Shown: positions 2,230 through 12,290, numbered from the stretch's first letter. The stretch: 12,290 bases of DNA from a virus (IMGVR_UViG_3300009285_000039:1-12290); one strand, 5' to 3'. Translations and numbers: made by a program. Notes: generated by a model from the sequence alone, not told the origin.

Positions 2230-2559
2230 TCATTGATTGTCGGGTCCACTCTTAACCTCAGGATCAGGATCTACAAACGTGCTTAACAGGTTCTGTTGTA
2301 AGCTAGATGTGCTCAGATCTGCCATTGCTGCCTCAACAGGCGCGAGTGCAGTTAGATCATAAAACATATGCCTGCGGTATTGATGTTTCTTTAGCCATCC
2401 CCTGTATACCATTGATTGCAGTATCTTCATTGTGTAGCTATAATCTATTGCTAGCTTATTGCTTATTGCTGTCACATTCTTTCTTGTGTTGTGCACTATG
2501 TTTAGGTATACTAGTATCCTGGCTTCACTTTCTTTTATTAACTTTTTTGGTCTTACCAT
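2230..2559 (-). CDS. Winged helix-turn-helix transcriptional regulator (109 aa)
   Basis: Perfect SD AAGGAGG upstream of the ATG at 2559. The segment ARILVYLNIV..NVTAISNKLAIDYSYTMKILQSMVYRGWLKK fits an ArsR/MarR-like helix-turn-helix plus wing layout. The C-terminal tail is acidic and probably disordered. Confidence 0.6.
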   Translation of the reverse strand: MVRPKKLIKESEARILVYLNIVHNTRKNVTAISNKLAIDYSYTMKILQSMVYRGWLKKHQYRRHMFYDLTALAPVEAAMADLSTSSLQQNLLSTFVDPDPEVKSGPDNQ

Positions 2560-2562
2560 ATC

Positions 2563-2973
2563 TTATTCCTCCTTAACTACTTCTAATATTACGCCGAAAT
2601 TGAAATAGAATCTACCTTTTGCATCTGTCAAGTCTGCACCTCTCAAGTCTGCACCTCTCAAGTCTGCTCCTGTTAAGTCTGCAGCTGTCAAGTCTGCACC
2701 TCTCAAGTCTGCTCCTCTCAAGTCTGCACCTGTCAAGTCTGCACCTGTCAAGTCTGCACCTCTCAAGTCTGCACCTCTCAAGTCTGCATCTCTCAAGTCT
2801 GCACCTCTCAAGTCTGCACCTGTCAAGTCTGCATCTGTCAAGTCTGCATCTCTCAAGTCTGCACCTCTCAAGTCTGCAATTTCCAATAATATTTTTCCTG
2901 TAATCCTATTAGTTATTTTCATTTTGTCCTCATTATCTTGTTCATGTATCGGTTGAATTTTCTCATGCTCCAA
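2563..2973 (-). CDS. Pentapeptide-repeat protein with 17 consecutive A-D-L-(R/T)-(G/D/A) units and an acidic net charge
   Basis: The translation is ADLRG/ADLRD/ADLTD/ADLTG x17, with 21 Asp versus 10 Arg inside the repeat. The track start at 2973 is TTG. An in-frame ATG at 2922 preceded by GAGGA is the more likely start, giving 119 aa. Confidence 0.85.
   Translation of the reverse strand: MEHEKIQPIHEQDNEDKMKITNRITGKILLEIADLRGADLRDADLTDADLTGADLRGADLRDADLRGADLRGADLTGADLTGADLRGADLRGADLTAADLTGADLRGADLRGADLTDAKGRFYFNFGVILEVVKEE
2621..2875. repeat. Tandem array of 17 x 15-nt units (consensus gcacctctcaagtct) encoding the pentapeptide repeats
   Basis: Unit-by-unit count: 7 units are identical to gcacctctcaagtct, 3 to gcacctgtcaagtct, 2 each to gcatctgtcaagtct and gcatctctcaagtct, and 3 are singletons. 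Very few differences are synonymous. Confidence 0.95.
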
Positions 2974-3015: not shown

Positions 3016-3192
3016 TTAGCTTTTGTTGTAGTCACTTTTGCCTCTACTGAACACTACTGCTGTGTATTGGATTGTCATGCCTGATTCTTTGTTTACGTGT
3101 GTTTGTGTTGCGAATACGTTAACGGTTTTTTCGTATTCATTGACTAATTTGTCAAATTCTTCTGCACTATCACTTGTTATGGTTTTTATCAT
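3016..3192 (-). CDS. 58-aa small protein, first gene of the leftward arm (MIKTITSDSAEEFDKLVNEYEKTVNVFATQTHVNKESGMTIQYTAVVFSRGKSDYNKS); function unknown
   Basis: Hand translation; it falls below the 60-aa cutoff of the ORF track. SD GGTGAT (3198-3203, minus strand) lies 5 nt upstream of the ATG. The layout resembles small Cse60-like alpha/beta phage proteins, which is weak recognition only. Confidence 0.5.
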   Translation of the reverse strand: MIKTITSDSAEEFDKLVNEYEKTVNVFATQTHVNKESGMTIQYTAVVFSRGKSDYNKS

Positions 3193-3228
3193 TTTCGATC
3201 ACCTTAATACTACTTATAGTATAGGTTA

Positions 3229-3236
3229 TATTTAAA
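3229..3236 (-). promoter_or_regulatory. Candidate promoter element for the leftward arm: TTTAAATA on the minus strand (archaeal TATA-box-like)
   Basis: The minus strand reads aacaTTTAAATAtaacc. The element ends 37 nt upstream of ATG 3192, leaving room for a transcription start just upstream of the SD. A split ATACT-N6-AGTAT inverted repeat (3207-3222) sits between it and the SD. Confidence 0.3.
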
Positions 3237-3293
3237 TGTTGTGAAAGATATTTCCATACATCCAAAAAAGTAGTTATATATGTGACGTGAACT

Positions 3294-3347
3294 AAAAGAG
3301 AAAAAAGAAGAACAAAAGAAGCAAAAAAAGAAGAAAAAAGAGAAAAA
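3294..3347. repeat. Polypurine (A/G) tract, 54 nt with only two pyrimidines on the plus strand
   Basis: Read directly: aaaagagaaaaaagaagaacaaaagaagcaaaaaaagaagaaaaaagagaaaaa. It is non-coding. The 60-aa minus-strand ORF 3170..3352 is its low-complexity mirror. Confidence 0.8.
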
Positions 3348-3642
3348 CACACACCCTGCTAACTAAGCAAACACTCATTAGACGTATATAATAATAAAAA
3401 AGTGCATAACTTATATATAAGGTTTATGAAAGATAAATCATTACTACTTAAAAATACAACAACGTTTTATGTCTTTTTTACCATGTTTCCACACGAAATC
3501 AAGCATTTATGTTTTTTAAGCACAATATAAGAACAAAAAACTACCTGTAGTAATAATCCCCAACAAAGATTTTTGTCAGTTTTTTGATCAAATACACATT
3601 ATAATCGTGTGGTGTGTATGAACATATAAAGAGTAGTGCAAC

Positions 3643-3666
3643 ATCATGCACTAGCGCGTGCATGAT
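3643..3666. promoter_or_regulatory. Perfect inverted repeat ATCATGCAC-tagcgc-GTGCATGAT (9-bp stems, 6-nt loop)
   Basis: Read directly. The CATGCAC core recurs a third time at 3685-3691. It lies in the centre of the non-coding control region. Confidence 0.6.
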
Positions 3667-3754
3667 CACAACACAATTAATACTCATGCACAACCAAACA
3701 AACACATAAATAGATCAAAAAACTTCGATCAAACTGTCACTGATGACTAATGGT

Positions 3755-3874
3755 GTATACTAATATGTCATTATCACTACTAGTATACGTTTATCCATTC
3801 TGTTCACTCATAATCAATGACGTATACTAGTATACAAATAGCTATACTAGTATGTCACTAAGTATACTATTCAC
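3755..3874. promoter_or_regulatory. Array of about 5 palindromic sites built on ATACT/AGTAT half-sites (best copy GTATACTAGTATAC at 3822-3835), interleaved with TGTCAC and CACTAAG motifs
   Basis: Copies: GTATACTAATAT 3755-3766, CTACTAGTATAC 3777-3788, GTATACTAGTATAC 3822-3835 (a perfect 14-bp palindrome), TATACTAGTATG 3843-3854, GTATACTATT 3862-3871. There is an extra half-site, CTAGTATA, at 3942-3949. Confidence 0.7.
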
Positions 3875-3888
3875 TAAGCGACAGTTAA

Positions 3889-3909
3889 GGGGGGGGATAA
3901 AGGGGGGGG
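3889..3909. promoter_or_regulatory. G8-ATAAA-G8 homopolymer doublet 46 nt upstream of the terL start
   Basis: Read directly: G at 3889-3896, ataaa, then G at 3902-3909. By eye these are the longest G runs in an otherwise AT-rich unit. Confidence 0.8.
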
Positions 3910-3954
3910 TTAGATGTCACAAAAATTATTATTAATGATGTCTAGTATATTTTT

Positions 3955-5214
3955 ATGATTCTTGATCAATGGCAGAAGGATGTTTTGGAAGCTGAGGGGA
4001 ATATTTGTATTTGTTCTGGTCGTCAGGTTGGTAAGTCTGAGATTATTGCCCTAAAAACTGCTACCTTCATCTCTAAGTATCCCAACAAAAAGGTTCTTAT
4101 TATCTCGGTGACTGAGGCTCAGGCTGAGAATATGCTTATTAAGATCTTGTTGCATTTGCATGCTATTGATAAGCGGTTGATTGCTAGGGGTGGTAATCGT
4201 CCTACTAAGCATAAGGTTGTTCTTATGAATGGGAGTTATGCTATCACTAAAGCAGTCGGACAATATGGCTTAGGAGCTCTTGGTTTGACTATGGACGTGG
4301 TTGTTCCTGATGAGTGTGCTTATCTTCCTGAGACTATTTGGGCGTCGATCACCCCTATGCTCTTGACCACTGGTGGTTCTTTGTGGTTATTGAGTACGCC
4401 TAATGCTCAGGAAGGATATTTTTATAAGGCGTATACTGATCCGTCTTATGGTTTTAGGACTTTTCATGTGAATTCTGAGGATGTGGCTAATGCTCGTGCT
4501 GAGCCTATGCGTTCTCTTATGTTAGCACACTTGGAAAGGGAGAAGTTGCGTATGTCTCCTATGCAGTATGCTCAGCAATACCTAGCACAATTTCAAGAAG
4601 AATTGGGACAATTGTTTTCTGATGAGCTAATTCAGGGTGCGCAGGTTATGGATCGTGTGCCTCTTGTTAAGGGTGATTATTATTTGGGTGTGGATGTTGC
4701 TAGGATGGGCGGTGATGAGACTACTTTCGAGATCCTGGAGCGTAAGGATAAGAAGTATTATCAAAGAGAAAATATTACTAATAAGTATACGCTAACAACT
4801 GAAACCATCAGCAAGATTTTAGAATTAGATCGCATTTATGATTTCAAACAAATATATATTGATGATGGTGGCTTAGGCGTGGCTGTGTTTGATCAATTAT
4901 TGAATACTAATCAGACAAAGAATAAAGTGGTTGCGATTAATAATGCTGCTAGATCTATAGAAATGGATAACAACCGCAGACGTAAACTCTTGAAGGAAGA
5001 TCTTTACCTTAACTTCTTAAACCTCATCGAGAAACAGGAATTATTTTTGTTGAAAGATCCCGAAATTTTTACTAGTTTAAAGTCTATTATGATTGAACAT
5101 GATGTGCAAAAACAAAACATTAAAATATATGGGCGTTATAGTCACATTACAGAAGGCTTAATTCGGGCTGCTTGGAGTAATCACTCGACGAGACTAAACC
5201 TTTGGGTTAGGTAA
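3955..5214 (+). CDS. terL: Terminase large subunit (ATPase plus RNase H-like nuclease), 419 aa
   Basis: Walker A is CSGRQVGKSE, Walker B with the catalytic Glu is DVVVPDECAY, and the coupling motif is LLSTPN. Nuclease acidic motifs are YYLGVDVARMGGDETT and IYIDDGGLGVAVFDQL. No SD is present, so this may be a leaderless first gene. Confidence 0.9.
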   Translation: MILDQWQKDVLEAEGNICICSGRQVGKSEIIALKTATFISKYPNKKVLIISVTEAQAENMLIKILLHLHAIDKRLIARGGNRPTKHKVVLMNGSYAITKAVGQYGLGALGLTMDVVVPDECAYLPETIWASITPMLLTTGGSLWLLSTPNAQEGYFYKAYTDPSYGFRTFHVNSEDVANARAEPMRSLMLAHLEREKLRMSPMQYAQQYLAQFQEELGQLFSDELIQGAQVMDRVPLVKGDYYLGVDVARMGGDETTFEILERKDKKYYQRENITNKYTLTTETISKILELDRIYDFKQIYIDDGGLGVAVFDQLLNTNQTKNKVVAINNAARSIEMDNNRRRKLLKEDLYLNFLNLIEKQELFLLKDPEIFTSLKSIMIEHDVQKQNIKIYGRYSHITEGLIRAAWSNHSTRLNLWVR

Positions 5215-5863: not shown

Positions 5864-6486
5864 GCGGTGTACCACAAAATTTTCAGGCTATAAGCAGTGT
5901 GTTAGCGAATTATAATTTTGTAGACATAGCTTCAGGAACTGGATATATCAATTTTTATGCGGGTAAGACTGTGGATCTAGCATTATTATCTAATTTCACG
6001 TACTATTCTGACACGATAACTACTGATTTCACTGTTGCTAGTGCTGCGTATAATAAGATTGTTGATCAAGATTTTGATGTACTCCTTAATCGTCCTCTGG
6101 ATTTGAAGGGTTTAGGGATTGTTAATGTTCCAGTGTTTGGTTTGAGTAATCAAGTGCACTTATATGCTGTAGCTACTCTTAGGAAGTGGACTGGTGCTGT
6201 AGAGACGGATATAGTGAGCAATACTAGCAGTGTATTGGATTCTGCTGGATCAAGTTATAAGATGCTTGCTGTGGACTTAAATATTCCATTAACACATTTT
6301 AAAATCGGTGAATATCTTAGATTAACCATTGAGATTTGGGAAAAGACTACTGGCGCAGCATCTAGTGGTAAGTATGCTCATGATCCAAAGAATCGAACTA
6401 CTGGTTTGGGCACTGATGTGTGGGATAGTACTGGCGCGTGTCCTAGTCAATTATCTTTTCAGTGTCCTGTGAGGTTAAACTTATAA
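5860..6486 (+). CDS. Beta-rich protein of unknown function (208 aa), presumed virion component
   Basis: ATGA start/stop overlap with the upstream gene. The composition is beta-strand-like and I recognise no motif. Confidence 0.5.
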   Translation: MSGVPQNFQAISSVLANYNFVDIASGTGYINFYAGKTVDLALLSNFTYYSDTITTDFTVASAAYNKIVDQDFDVLLNRPLDLKGLGIVNVPVFGLSNQVHLYAVATLRKWTGAVETDIVSNTSSVLDSAGSSYKMLAVDLNIPLTHFKIGEYLRLTIEIWEKTTGAASSGKYAHDPKNRTTGLGTDVWDSTGACPSQLSFQCPVRLNL

Positions 6487-6488
6487 AA

Positions 6489-7577
6489 ATGGCGTACGGA
6501 TTATCAAACACAGCAACAGGGAATATGACAACTACAGTGACGGATGTTACCGTTACAGCGTTGAATACTGACGGATCTGGCGCGTCTAAGGAATCTTACT
6601 GGCAGAATACTAAGTGGAGCACTTATTGGGGATATTTTAATTGCATCCCAGAACTAAAATCTGCTCTCTTAATGAAGGCAACATGGGATGTAGGCAAAGG
6701 ATATACCACCGATCCTGCAACTGCTGTATTATTGGATAGTATTTCTGGGTGGGGTAAAGACACATTCCTGGATATTCTCTTTAATATGGATTTGATCTCT
6801 CGACTAGCTGGGGATGCATTCGCAGAAATTATTATGGATAAAAAGGCCGATACATTGCTAAATATTAAGGTGCTTGATCCTGGAAGTATAAAGATAGTCA
6901 CCGACGATAAGGGGATTATTAAGCGTTATGAACAGAATAGCAAGATCACTGGGAGTGTAATAACATTTAAGCCTGAACAAATATTTCATTTATCACACAA
7001 TAGATTAGCAGATCAGATTCATGGGATGAGCGATATTATCTCGATGGAAAACACCATCTTAGCCGAGCTTGAGAATTTTACTGATTTAAAAAAGATTATG
7101 CACCGTCAAGCACGTCCAATGATCATGTTCAAATTAGGCACTGATGATCCAGCAAAGATCTCTGCGTTCGTTGCTAAGATGGATCAAGCTGTGAATAAGG
7201 GTGAAAACATTTATATTCCTGACGATAAGAACACCGTTTCCTACGAAGTAATCCAAGTAGACGTAGGTGCTAGCGTTATGGCGTGGCGTGAGGATATCAG
7301 GAACAAGTTTTATCGTACTCTAGGACTGCCACTTATAGTGTTTGGCAGCTCTGGAAGTACGGAAAGCGGTGGAAAGATAGAGTATCTCGCTCATGAGCAA
7401 GTATTTAGTCATGACCAAAAGTTTATAGAAGAGCAAATCTGGAATCAACTCTACTTGAGAATTAAACTTAATTCTCCTGTAACTCTTCTAGAAAACTTGC
7501 AGAAGGATCAATCTAAGGATGCTAATCAGGGTATGGAAATGCAACAGAGTGATATTACTGCTGGGAGTGGTGCATAA
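6489..7577 (+). CDS. Portal protein (362 aa from ATG 6489)
   Basis: The segment AGDAFAEII..LNIKVLDPGSIKIV.DDKGIIKRYEQ....ITFKPEQIFHLSHNRLADQIHGMSDI...LENFTDLKKIMHRQARPMIMFKLG matches the conserved core layout of HK97/SPP1-type portals. It lies downstream of terL. The GTG start at 6462 would overlap the upstream gene and lacks an SD. Confidence 0.75.
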   Translation: MAYGLSNTATGNMTTTVTDVTVTALNTDGSGASKESYWQNTKWSTYWGYFNCIPELKSALLMKATWDVGKGYTTDPATAVLLDSISGWGKDTFLDILFNMDLISRLAGDAFAEIIMDKKADTLLNIKVLDPGSIKIVTDDKGIIKRYEQNSKITGSVITFKPEQIFHLSHNRLADQIHGMSDIISMENTILAELENFTDLKKIMHRQARPMIMFKLGTDDPAKISAFVAKMDQAVNKGENIYIPDDKNTVSYEVIQVDVGASVMAWREDIRNKFYRTLGLPLIVFGSSGSTESGGKIEYLAHEQVFSHDQKFIEEQIWNQLYLRIKLNSPVTLLENLQKDQSKDANQGMEMQQSDITAGSGA

Positions 7578-9479: not shown

Positions 9480-10364
9480 ATGGCAGACACAGTAGGAGAA
9501 CAAGATTTGAGAGCAGAATACATCGACGCAACAATCAAAGCAATAGCGTTGAGAGAATATGTCCTAAAAGACTTATGCACAATAGAATCGTCTAGCGCAT
9601 GGACTGAGACATATTATAGGGAGACAAATACTGATCCAACGGACCAGACAACAGGTGGCGGAGCATTTGTCAAGATTAAGGGTATCCCTAGACTATCACC
9701 ATTCCCATTCGGACAAGCAAGCTGGACAAAGGTATCAGGTATCAATCAGAAGTATGGAGCAGAAGGCTTAGTGTCTTATGAGGATGAGTTGATGAGCAAT
9801 ATCAGCGTAATCCAGAGAACAATGCTAAGAGTAGCTAGGGCACCTGTTTTGGCTGTGGATAGCGATATTGCAGCATTAATGCTTGCATCGGCTGGTAATG
9901 TTGTTACTATAGGTGCTGGTAATGAGTGGAATAGTGCGACGGTAGCCAATAGGTTACCAATCAAAGACATCCTAGATGCTATACAATTGATTAGGGCAGA
10001 CAACCTAAACGCACTAGGTGGAAACGGGTACTTATGCGTTAATGGTACAGACTACACAAACCTAATAAGCAATAGTCAGGTAGTGAATAATCCGACATTC
10101 AAGAGCGGAGTATTAGAGAATGGTGTAGTCGGAGAACTTTGCGGACTAAAGATTAAGGTCACAGAATCCTTAGAATTTGGTACTCCTGATAAGGCATATG
10201 TTGTGATAGCAAAAGAGGCTATGACATGGAAAACAGTTGTCCCCCTAACTACTATGACAATAGTTGATCCTGGAATCAAAAAGACAATCAGGGCATGGGA
10301 GTTAGGACAAGCCCAGATGGTTGTACCAAATGCTGTTGCAAGAATAGACAATACGAGGGCTTAA
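9480..10364 (+). CDS. Major capsid protein, probable HK97 fold (294 aa)
   Basis: Its size, its position after the scaffold-like and decoration-like genes, the strong SD (GGGTGGT) and a mixed alpha/beta sequence are typical of tailed-virus MCPs. An oligo-T terminator follows shortly downstream, consistent with a highly expressed unit. Confidence 0.7.
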   Translation: MADTVGEQDLRAEYIDATIKAIALREYVLKDLCTIESSSAWTETYYRETNTDPTDQTTGGGAFVKIKGIPRLSPFPFGQASWTKVSGINQKYGAEGLVSYEDELMSNISVIQRTMLRVARAPVLAVDSDIAALMLASAGNVVTIGAGNEWNSATVANRLPIKDILDAIQLIRADNLNALGGNGYLCVNGTDYTNLISNSQVVNNPTFKSGVLENGVVGELCGLKIKVTESLEFGTPDKAYVVIAKEAMTWKTVVPLTTMTIVDPGIKKTIRAWELGQAQMVVPNAVARIDNTRA

Positions 10365-10956: not shown

Positions 10957-11160
10957 ATGAGAAGGACTATAATCTTTTTGATGCTTGCATTATTGCTTAT
11001 AGGATCTGTGTTGGCTATTGCGTTCACTCCTAAGGGTGATGTGAATCTTCAGAGGTATTATAAGATAATCAATGCTACAGGAATATCTCTAGTGAATGGG
11101 AATATTACTGGCGTGAATTGTGTGATCTACCAGTCTGGCGGGATGGATTGTTCGGGATAA
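10957..11160 (+). CDS. 67-aa exported or membrane-anchored small protein
   Basis: From ATG 10957, MRRTIIFLMLALLLIGSVLAIAF has a classical n-region, h-region and AxA-like layout of a Sec signal peptide or N-terminal anchor. The track start at 10921 overlaps the upstream gene. Confidence 0.5.
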   Translation: MRRTIIFLMLALLLIGSVLAIAFTPKGDVNLQRYYKIINATGISLVNGNITGVNCVIYQSGGMDCSG

Positions 11161-11166
11161 GATCCT

Positions 11167-12290
11167 ATGAATAAGGTACTATTATTTTGGGGATTATGTA
11201 TAGTTATTAGTACGAGTATGGTTTATGCTGCTGTGCCTTTGCCTAAATATTTTTGGAATGGTTCATCGGTGGTATCTCAAGGCACCCCTATTGTTTTAAA
11301 GAATTATAATTCTACAAATTTTCATGCTGATGGGACACTTGATTATTATAATTTTAGTGAAACAACACAAAGTTTTTTAGGAAACACAACTATTAGTTTG
11401 TTAGATTTTAATATTACTTCTGTTGGTGCTATAGCTTCATGTTTTAGTGGCAACAAATTTAGTGCTACAGATGTCTTATTTGTTAATACTCAGGATCCAA
11501 AGAATAGTACTGTCGCTGTGACCTTTGCTAGTGGTGGAACATCTGTTAGGTTTGGATTAGAAAATGGCAGTACTTCAAAAGTTTCTGTTAGTAGTGGAGT
11601 GTTAAAGAATTTTACTTGGTACTGTATTGTAGGAAACATTTTCGATATTTCTAATGTTGATTTGTTTTTGAATGGTGTTAATCAGACTGGGACTTCAGCG
11701 ATACCTGCATTAGATACTCAGGGTGTTTATATCGGTGGTTTTCCTAAATACATTTATTATAGTAATCTATTGGTAGCCTATATTGCTATCTATAATACCA
11801 CCTTATCTGCTTCTGAGATAGCGGAATTAAATATTACATGGACGAGTTATGACCCTTATAATTCTAATGAAACTAATGGTTCTTGTGTTTCACCTTCCGA
11901 AAATTTATATATTAATAACGCTACAGTGTTATGTCCAGGCGTTTTTACTTTGGTTGATCCTGATGATAATGGTGCTATAATTATTAATGCAAGTAATATT
12001 GTTCTAACCTGTAATGATACTGTATTGAAGGGTGATTATGGTGCTGGAAGTATAGGAATATATATTTCTAATAAGAATAACGTTACTGTAGAGAATTGCG
12101 GTATAAGAGAATACTTTAGGGGAATATACACTTATGGGACTATATCAAATACTATAAAGAATAATGTTTTTAATCATACAGATTATGGCATTGATACACA
12201 ATACACTAATGACAGCTTATTAATTAATAATTCTATCTCGAATGTGAATACTTTAGGTATAAGAACACAAACAGGATGCTACTATAATAC
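11167..12290 (+). CDS. N-terminal part of the 695-aa exported protein: signal peptide, LamG/concanavalin-like lectin domain, then the start of the parallel beta-helix (continues at 78..1041 after collapsing the overlap)
   Basis: Hand translation shows no stop from ATG 11167 to the window end. The N-terminus MNKVLLFWGLCIVISTSMVYA-AV looks like a cleavable signal peptide. W.CIVGN...VDLFLNGVNQTG......GVYIGGFP.....LVAYIAIYNTTLSASEIAELN is a typical LamG_3-type signature. IVLTCNDTVLKG...GIYISNKNNVTVENCGI...GIYTY.TISNTIKNNVFN matches PbH1/NosD-like beta-helix repeats. Confidence 0.8.
   Translation, partial: MNKVLLFWGLCIVISTSMVYAAVPLPKYFWNGSSVVSQGTPIVLKNYNSTNFHADGTLDYYNFSETTQSFLGNTTISLLDFNITSVGAIASCFSGNKFSATDVLFVNTQDPKNSTVAVTFASGGTSVRFGLENGSTSKVSVSSGVLKNFTWYCIVGNIFDISNVDLFLNGVNQTGTSAIPALDTQGVYIGGFPKYIYYSNLLVAYIAIYNTTLSASEIAELNITWTSYDPYNSNETNGSCVSPSENLYINNATVLCPGVFTLVDPDDNGAIIINASNIVLTCNDTVLKGDYGAGSIGIYISNKNNVTVENCGIREYFRGIYTYGTISNTIKNNVFNHTDYGIDTQYTNDSLLINNSISNVNTLGIRTQTGCYYN
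12214..12290. repeat. Right copy of the exact 77-nt terminal overlap (identical to 1..77)
   Basis: See the feature at 1..77. Confidence 0.9.

Follow-up and report, generated by a model that had tools for sequence, protein, structure and literature searches.

A phased array of GTATAC dyads upstream of terL is conserved among small tailed viruses independently of the viral winged-helix gene

Results and Discussion

The stretch of DNA analysed here, called the window throughout, is 12,290 nt long; bases 1-77 are an exact repeat of 12214-12290, a 77-nt assembly overlap, and the window is therefore one circularly assembled genome of 12,213 bp, the complete genome of a tailed virus. Its structural (late) operon on the plus strand opens with terL (3955..5214) and includes the genes for the portal (6462-7577), a cement-like protein, an HK97-type capsid protein (9480-10364), and a 695-aa LamG/beta-helix fibre protein with many N-x-S/T sequons. 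The fibre ORF (11168-12213, continuing into 1-1041) crosses the window junction, so the seemingly gene-free 11160-12290 is actually coding. The early operon is read on the minus strand from 3192 down to 1367 and encodes a 58-aa protein, a pentapeptide-repeat protein, a TrmB-like winged-helix protein (wHTH; 2230..2559), an ERCC4 nuclease, and a 109-aa core early protein (1367-1696). A 60-aa ORF at 3170-3352 looks spurious, a low-complexity tract that has been translated, which apparently leaves 3193-3954 as the sole large non-coding region of the genome.

Database searches returned no Rep-like family for any scanned ORF (Pfam, PHROGs, NCBIfam), and Rep, primase, helicase and polymerase were all looked for and not found in the 12.2-kb genome. 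No TerS family matched among the ORFs scanned, in agreement with an earlier reading of the sequence alone (the sequence-only reading), which had recognised no small terminase gene; nor is an initiator or a small terminase recognisable in the fully readable family members, window included. Rfam, searched with the window at a permissive E-value, gave nothing relevant, no tRNAs were found, and GenBank phages contained no near-identity match for the whole window. TerL searches of viral and metagenome collections showed the family to be large, with contigs of ~11-12.7 kb that come from aquifer, sediment, vent and marine metagenomes; a literature search found no description of this small tailed-virus family.

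Several features elsewhere in these genomes are recorded here as observations in their own right. The pentapeptide-repeat gene (2563-2973, minus strand) is made of 17 tandem 15-nt units (2560-2923); in near-identical strains the ORF at this position is 64-116 aa long, as against 136 aa in the window, with a Pentapeptide match in two, and repeat number thus appears hypervariable, while the gene is missing from other clade members. Between the convergent 87-aa and 109-aa genes, 1329-1363 holds a terminator-like hairpin, GGGGACG-N6-CGTCCCC and then C6, which is followed by a T-rich tail when read on the minus strand. GATC occurs 0 times against 13 expected in one relative (L091) and 10-13 times against 32-35 in three others (L001, L002 and L094), whereas the window shows no avoidance (68 vs 50 expected); this contrast suggests that restriction systems differ between the hosts.

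At the terL-proximal end of 3193-3954, between the divergent early and late operons, lies an array whose unit is the hexamer GTATAC, spaced alternately by 8 and 12 bp. The hexamers make up 14-bp dyads, GTATAC-NN-GTATAC, with a free central dinucleotide and a distance of 20 bp from start to start, laid out as a pair (3755/3775) and a triple (3822/3842/3862). In the pair, site 1 (GTATACTAATATGT, 3755..3768) and site 2 (CACTACTAGTATAC, 3775..3788) each match the dyad at 9/12 positions; site 1 aligns with the first pair site in all relatives, and the CATTAT spacer that follows it is the counterpart of a spacer, (G)TCACTAT, that is conserved in them. The triple opens with site 3 (GTATACTAGTATAC, 3822..3835), a perfect 14-bp dyad, and continues with site 4 (CTATACTAGTATGT, 3842..3855; 9/12), after which comes the conserved spacer CACTAA, and with site 5 (GTATACTATTCACT, 3862..3875), a half-site with its left half intact and its right half degenerate. 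The 17-mer TATACTAGTATGTCACT at site 4 also occurs in L002 and L091, as found by DNA search, and in L007, as found by reading the locus. Two further sharers of this 17-mer, L090 and L093, were set aside as chance, each having a single copy inside the coding sequence of an unrelated phage.

Much of what the sequence-only reading had described at this locus is borne out. It had counted five full or partial copies of a palindrome within 120 nt, one of them a perfect 14-mer, and these are present; TGTCAC stands at 3735, 3853 and 3915 and TGTCAT at 3766, as it had said. Its two CACTAAG motifs need one correction, since that at 3872 is right and that placed at 3855 is really at 3856. Its premise that palindromes such as GTATAC and ACTAGT are depleted in viral genomes does not hold here, both being at or above expectation outside the array (GTATAC 7 vs 2.9 expected, ACTAGT 3 vs 3.2); the array is notable through its clustering and conservation, not through escape from restriction-site avoidance. 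TGTCAC by itself shows no enrichment, with 4 occurrences genome-wide and ~2.3 expected outside the array, and is kept in relatives as part of the paired-site spacer (GTATGTCACTATGTATAC).

The enrichment of the sites is evident from comparison with shuffled sequence, a check that the same reading had proposed, and the clustering lies above every dinucleotide shuffle: a 250-nt span contains five matches of 9/12 or better, and none of 200 dinucleotide shuffles has more than 4. If one mismatch is allowed, ATACTAGTAT has 6 matches against 1.08 expected, a number reached by 0 of 200 shuffles, and 4 of the 6 are within 3757-3853; GTATACNNGTATAC is matched at 10/12 or better 4 times, with 0.64 such matches expected. 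An isolated 11/12 site (GTATACTAGTATCC, 2506..2519) lies inside the wHTH gene, where it covers the codons for ILVY; it is not conserved in L091 or L007 and is probably a chance occurrence. A literature search for the array motif found no relevant paper.

An array of this kind is present at the same place upstream of terL in seven independent relatives whose TerL proteins are 76-81% identical (L001, L002, L007, L091, L094, L095 and L104), which with the window make eight genomes. Shuffle statistics were computed for six of these, window included, L095 and L104 being read but not shuffled; each of the six has 4-7 strong sites where 0.3-0.6 are expected, clustered beyond all shuffles. The remaining intergenic DNA aligns poorly, with a mean column identity of 53%. 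The earlier suggestion that the clustering implies function has thus survived the comparison that could have refuted it, since the array is found in 7/7 other genomes of the clade and exceeds composition. Where TerL is at most 68% identical the array is absent, and some of the array-less relatives have instead one or two long palindromes, e.g. TTATTCGGTAYACCGAATAA or GTTAATCGG-N4-CCGATTAAC. In a neighbouring clade (TerL 62-68%; L009, L013, L014, L015 and L018) both the array and the G-runs described below are missing, TerL has a lysine-rich N-terminal extension, and a small hydrophobic ORF often lies upstream.

Within the arrays the half-sites are conserved and the central dinucleotide varies (TA, TG, CA, GA, TT), a combination typical of sites at which a symmetric dimer would read the outer half-sites. 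A non-palindromic centre can occur in both orientations (CTGG and CCAG in L001). The pair spacer (G)TCACTAT is conserved in the relatives, while the number of pairs and the distance between them vary and one pair is inverted in L001; copy number, spacing and orientation of this kind indicate an orientation-independent function, as for binding sites. We also considered hairpin or cruciform formation as the selected feature and rejected it. The centres of paired sites are non-complementary (CA/CA in L002, GA/TA in L007), and in the window A9 of site 1 stands opposite C6 of site 2 without compensation; since deviations and central dinucleotides are uncompensated between partners, selection appears to act on each dyad and not on a folded structure.

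Near-identical strains of the window's virus have 0 substitutions in the array. When the window is compared with five near-identical assemblies (L097-L102) over the 768-nt region, all 15 differences fall in 3593-3655, a 63-nt variable patch just upstream of a hairpin at 3643-3666; no difference occurs in the remaining 705 nt of intergenic DNA, and the patch looks like a swapped segment or a local hotspot.

The variable orientation also bears on a bacterial interpretation of the array as tandem promoters, with the TGTCAC/GTGACA spacers as -35 elements and the TATACT of the next site as -10. A sigma-70 scan does find such combinations in the array, GTGACA-18-TATACT and TTAACT-16-TATACT on the minus strand and CTGTCA-16-TATACT on the plus strand, but their count is not above that of shuffles (8 vs 4.9 +/- 2.6), their direction is not conserved given the inverted module of L001, and those on the minus strand would be >470 nt from the first early gene. 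As the evidence points to an archaeal host (see below), where sigma-70 is inapplicable, we regard this interpretation as highly improbable.

A constant association of the array with a downstream module is evident in all eight genomes. In 8/8 the array is followed, from a start within 4-40 nt, by GCGACAG, a double G-run, an A/T-rich box and terL, in that order. The GCGACAG box (3878..3884, plus strand) is invariant in the eight, and distant relatives have CGACGTT at the equivalent place. The double G-run, G8-ATAAA-G8 in the window (3889..3909, plus strand), is clade-wide and occurs also in some relatives with ~40% TerL identity; in L091 GCGACAG and the runs occupy 3729-3763, and the runs, G5AAAG3AAAG3ATAG5, match a G-quadruplex motif. 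Distant relatives combine CGACGTT boxes with pairs of G- or C-runs in either orientation. Several contigs break at or inside the G-runs, the run loci including L005 1277-1297, L067 1-22 and the ends of L095. A run of six C residues paired with another (C6-N10-C6, 1342-1363) was considered as a partner for the G-runs and discarded, as it is part of the terminator-like hairpin and is absent in relatives.

The A/T-rich box (CAAAAATTATTATTAA, 3920..3935, plus strand), which has equivalents in relatives, stands 20-35 nt before the terL ATG and is a putative late-promoter element of BRE/TATA-like type; the array lies 45-200 nt upstream of it and ~100-250 nt downstream of a further, upstream TATA-like box. 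A 14-codon ORF (3914-3958, MSQKLLLMMSSIFL), whose final ATGA overlaps the terL start codon, is not conserved as a uORF: its ATGTCAC start recurs in L091, but there in the reading frame of terL. On the 3' side of a TATA-like box the window has a 9-bp inverted repeat, ATCATGCAC-N6-GTGCATGAT (3643..3666, plus strand), and 8/8 genomes have an equivalent after their TATA-like box, with a stem of 8-10 bp, a loop of 3-6 nt and z-scores of -2.5 to -7.3; stem sequences differ between genomes. This hairpin could be either a structured RNA 5' end or terminator, or a variable operator. It was rejected as an operator specific to the wHTH protein, similar AAAAnnGC-ATA-GCnnTTTT hairpins being found in genomes with and without that gene alike.

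On the early side, a conserved minus-strand box, TATCTTTCACAAC-ATTTAAAT (3232..3252), precedes the first early gene by ~40 nt and is a candidate early promoter. It has a second copy at 3414-3434; the duplicated box reads TATWTAAAKGTTKTGAAAGATA (minus strand TTTCACAAC plus TATA), and the two copies are probably a pair of leftward early promoters. Between them lies a conserved A/G-rich tract of ~60-90 nt, polypurine at ~3290-3350 in the window, and other relatives have (TA)n or (CT)n in its place. A short leftward RNA that ends in the T-runs is possible. All of these promoter assignments come from inspection of the sequence and presuppose a host that we ourselves infer to be archaeal.

For the wHTH, a candidate array binder of the sequence-only reading, a profile was built from five wHTH proteins and the genomes were searched with it in all reading frames. 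It matches the window, L007, L091, L095 and L104 only, with no match in any frame of L001, L002 or L094; a peptide search for wHTH relatives had returned nothing by that method, and the homologues came from direct reading of the loci. In place of the wHTH, L001, L002 and L094 have a protein with a coiled coil (and a Zn-ribbon) that is absent from the wHTH genomes, and whose sequence pattern and weak CcdA match point to an RHH-like fold, so that wHTH and RHH are mutually exclusive among the array genomes. The sequence TAGTGTGG is frequent in the RHH genomes and may be an operator there. Terminal overlaps of 55 and 123 nt show L001 and L094 to be closed circular genomes, with arrays equal in quality to those found alongside the wHTH. 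Maintenance of the array thus does not depend on the wHTH, and no co-variation of the two is seen, the gene being present in five array genomes and absent from three with arrays of equal quality.

These results weigh against the array being the operator of the virus's own TrmB-like wHTH repressor (2230-2559) in the style of classical phage immunity, which we now consider very unlikely. Several features would suit it: the gene belongs to the divergent early operon, dyads of 14 bp would accommodate a wHTH dimer, one more site (11/12) is found within the gene's own sequence, and TACTAGTA is part of the perfect site, where it may be compared with the TACT/AGTA half-sites (TACTN3AGTA and others) that TrmB-family proteins recognise (PMC4158304). 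The array also shares with TrmB operators (TACTN3AGTA, TGM) a TAC(T)/(A)GTA half-site palindrome. It differs from them in a half-site spacing of 0 as opposed to 3-8, and the T and A beside the centre, which a TrmB half-site needs, are the least conserved positions. The intragenic site is unconserved in L091 and L007, and above all equal arrays persist in L001, L002 and L094, two of them closed genomes, with no viral TrmB-like gene in any frame.

Other viral proteins fare no better as binders. The 49-aa and 127-aa ORFs are conserved also in array-less genomes and so cannot set the specificity of the array. Among array genomes whose early operon is fully covered, the only early genes in common are those for the ERCC4 nuclease and the 109-aa protein (the L007 locus stops at its ERCC4 gene and so bears only on the nuclease). 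The 109-aa protein is predicted to adopt an OB-fold (mean pLDDT 82), with PrgE, RPA and SSB proteins as its best, though weak, structural matches and no sequence-level match in PDB, Pfam or NCBIfam; on this model it is probably a single-strand-binding protein, and it was put aside as an unlikely array binder. With no conserved viral duplex-specific binder left, a host protein is the simplest candidate.

The same results bear on packaging. The array lies directly upstream of terL, ending 80 nt before the ATG, which is the usual place of pac or cos, and no TerS is recognisable; the array may accordingly be imagined as a recognition site (pac or cosB-like) on which terminase, or an unrecognised small subunit, assembles before cutting nearby, e.g. 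at GCGACAG or the G-run. It resembles the clustered short repeats found beside terminase genes in other phages, such as the hexamers of P1 pac, which are methylation-regulated, and the R-sites of lambda cosB. In these viruses a variable specific part, found only where TerL identity is at least 76% and absent at 68% or less, stands beside a box conserved family-wide (CGACRKT), recalling cosB beside cosN. Circular or permuted assemblies are as expected of headful packaging, and the two ends of one complete contig, L095, fall within the G-run pair and share a 9-nt repeat.

We nevertheless judge a packaging site unlikely. Unlike in the known pac and cos systems, a small terminase was not found in the window's virus, and no candidate for a recognition subunit is at hand: the sequence-only reading had offered the wHTH or one of the small ORFs after terL as TerS, of which the former is excluded by the arrays of L001, L002 and L094 and the latter by the array-independent, family-wide conservation of the 49-aa and 127-aa ORFs. 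Contig ends were also weighed as evidence for cos and found unconvincing. They lie at G/C runs but at differing positions (L067, L043, L039, L048, L095), homopolymer runs are common assembly break points, and the window and five near-identical contigs, six assemblies of one virus in all, continue through the region and break elsewhere, with no fixed genome end near the array in any of the six; the breaks at G/C runs are probably technical.

The virus is probably archaeal, as several lines of sequence evidence suggest. The best named relative of its TerL by E-value is that of the haloarchaeal virus HGTV-1 (5e-21), the best matches of the ERCC4 nuclease are archaeal Hef and Xpf models, and the early-gene boxes can be read as BRE plus TATA (CACAAC-ATTTAAATA in the window, CACAAAC-TTTATATA in L095). 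Reference genomes contained no provirus or close relative, and gave only distant bacterial TerL matches. The exact mini-ORB TTCCAGTGGAA occurs 5 times in four relatives where 0.2 are expected in 429 kb, and all copies are upstream of terL (L001 432-442; L065 2299-2309; L077 981-991; L080 625-635 and 1101-1111). That of L001 sits between GTATAC pairs, and that of L065 extends to the extended ORB TTCCACTGGAAATGAA, a type also present in Pyrococcus ORB1 (PMC1904270). These mini-ORBs suggest an archaeal host and an Orc1/Cdc6-dependent origin in the region. The window has no significant ORB, its best match having 2 mismatches, with 6 such matches against 3.1 expected.

A genome without an initiator gene must recruit host replication proteins to 3193-3954, and the array could be part of the replication origin, its GTATAC dyads serving as iteron- or ORB-like loading sites for a host initiator or accessory factor. 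Consistent with this, 3193-3954 is the only sizeable non-coding region, and the early module offers only the SSB-like OB-fold protein and the ERCC4 nuclease. The lowest GC (26% at 3201-3600) and the polypurine tract at ~3290-3350 are in the same region, and a conserved host-type binder would explain how the array outlives swaps of viral regulators. Like Orc1/Cdc6 ORBs and mini-ORBs, the array consists of short repeated dyads in non-coding DNA near G-runs, in a replicon that needs a host initiator; G-strings belong to known ORBs (PMC4010727), and canonical mini-ORBs are present in the same region of relatives, once inside the array itself (L001). With five to eight copies and a periodic unit of ~20 bp it is also reminiscent of iteron origins.

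This role is possible but somewhat unlikely on present evidence. GTATAC-NN-GTATAC is unlike known ORBs and matches no ORB consensus, and a significant ORB is missing from the window and from 6/7 array relatives. The A/T-rich tract lies 150-500 nt from the array, and an adjacent A/T-rich unwinding element appears to be missing from the window. Iterons are normally read by a Rep that the element encodes, of which there is none here, and, unlike those of iteron origins, the units are palindromic and not directional and stand in separated pairs, not in contiguous tandem. The GC-skew minimum is uninformative because it coincides with the switch of coding strand.

As it is non-random and shared by all close relatives, the array is almost certainly a set of protein-docking sites in the single control region of the virus. 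Our preferred reading, which we put forward tentatively and at somewhat short of even confidence, is that of a phased dyad array that serves late-operon control, its sites bound by a dimeric protein which all members of the clade share and which the host may encode. It fits best with the dyad architecture, the phasing, the independence of orientation and, above all, the constant attachment of the array to the late-start module. A dimeric DNA-binding protein would fill adjacent sites cooperatively on one face of the helix, 20 bp being about two turns, and would build a nucleoprotein block just upstream of the GCGACAG/G-run/A/T-box module from which the terL-to-capsid operon would start, and downstream of the upstream rightward TATA-like promoter. 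Such a block could switch the late operon either by activation from upstream of the late BRE/TATA or by blocking read-through. In archaea, regulator sites upstream of BRE/TATA typically activate and those downstream typically repress (PMC4158304). The array sites do not appear to overlap a recognisable core promoter.

The binder in this regulatory reading would be a factor shared by the whole clade and not the lineage-variable wHTH or RHH; a host-encoded protein would be simplest, and the viral wHTH, where present, may compete for the same sites. The missing binder is the main weakness of the regulatory reading: wHTH and RHH are the two recognisable regulators, and the conserved OB-fold and ERCC4 proteins are atypical as site-specific duplex binders. 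In its several 14-17-bp dyads with short spacers, its phasing for cooperative dimers and its position between divergent operons the array resembles the OR/OL operators of lambda. It differs from them in that no cognate repressor co-varies with it, the wHTH and RHH being swapped while the array sites stay, in that no overlap of its sites with core promoter elements is visible, and in a host that is probably archaeal.

Origin and packaging signal must likewise lie in 3193-3954, and the operator array, origin iterons and pac-type site that the sequence-only reading had listed as its options are all still live candidates. A combined arrangement, which we think quite unlikely, would have the array, the CGACRKT box and the quadruplex-capable double G-run form one compact start site, where a host factor (e.g. 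a winged-helix protein of the TrmB family or Orc type) recruits the machinery and the G-run module opens or cuts the DNA for replication priming and/or terminase entry. If true, this would mean a TerS- and Rep-independent start of replication and packaging at a single locus in archaeal tailed viruses of ~12 kb.

Conclusions

Taken by itself, an array of conserved palindromes in the control region of a virus is nothing out of the ordinary. What is unusual in this case is that the array outlasts the exchange of the regulators next to it, and that a conserved, potentially quadruplex-forming G-run module goes with it in viruses without recognisable Rep and TerS. The array shows where the control hub lies in a widespread, uncharacterised family of very small tailed viruses, and the identity of the array's binder would show how late-gene timing and the start of replication or packaging are arranged in a minimal virus, and could point to the host.
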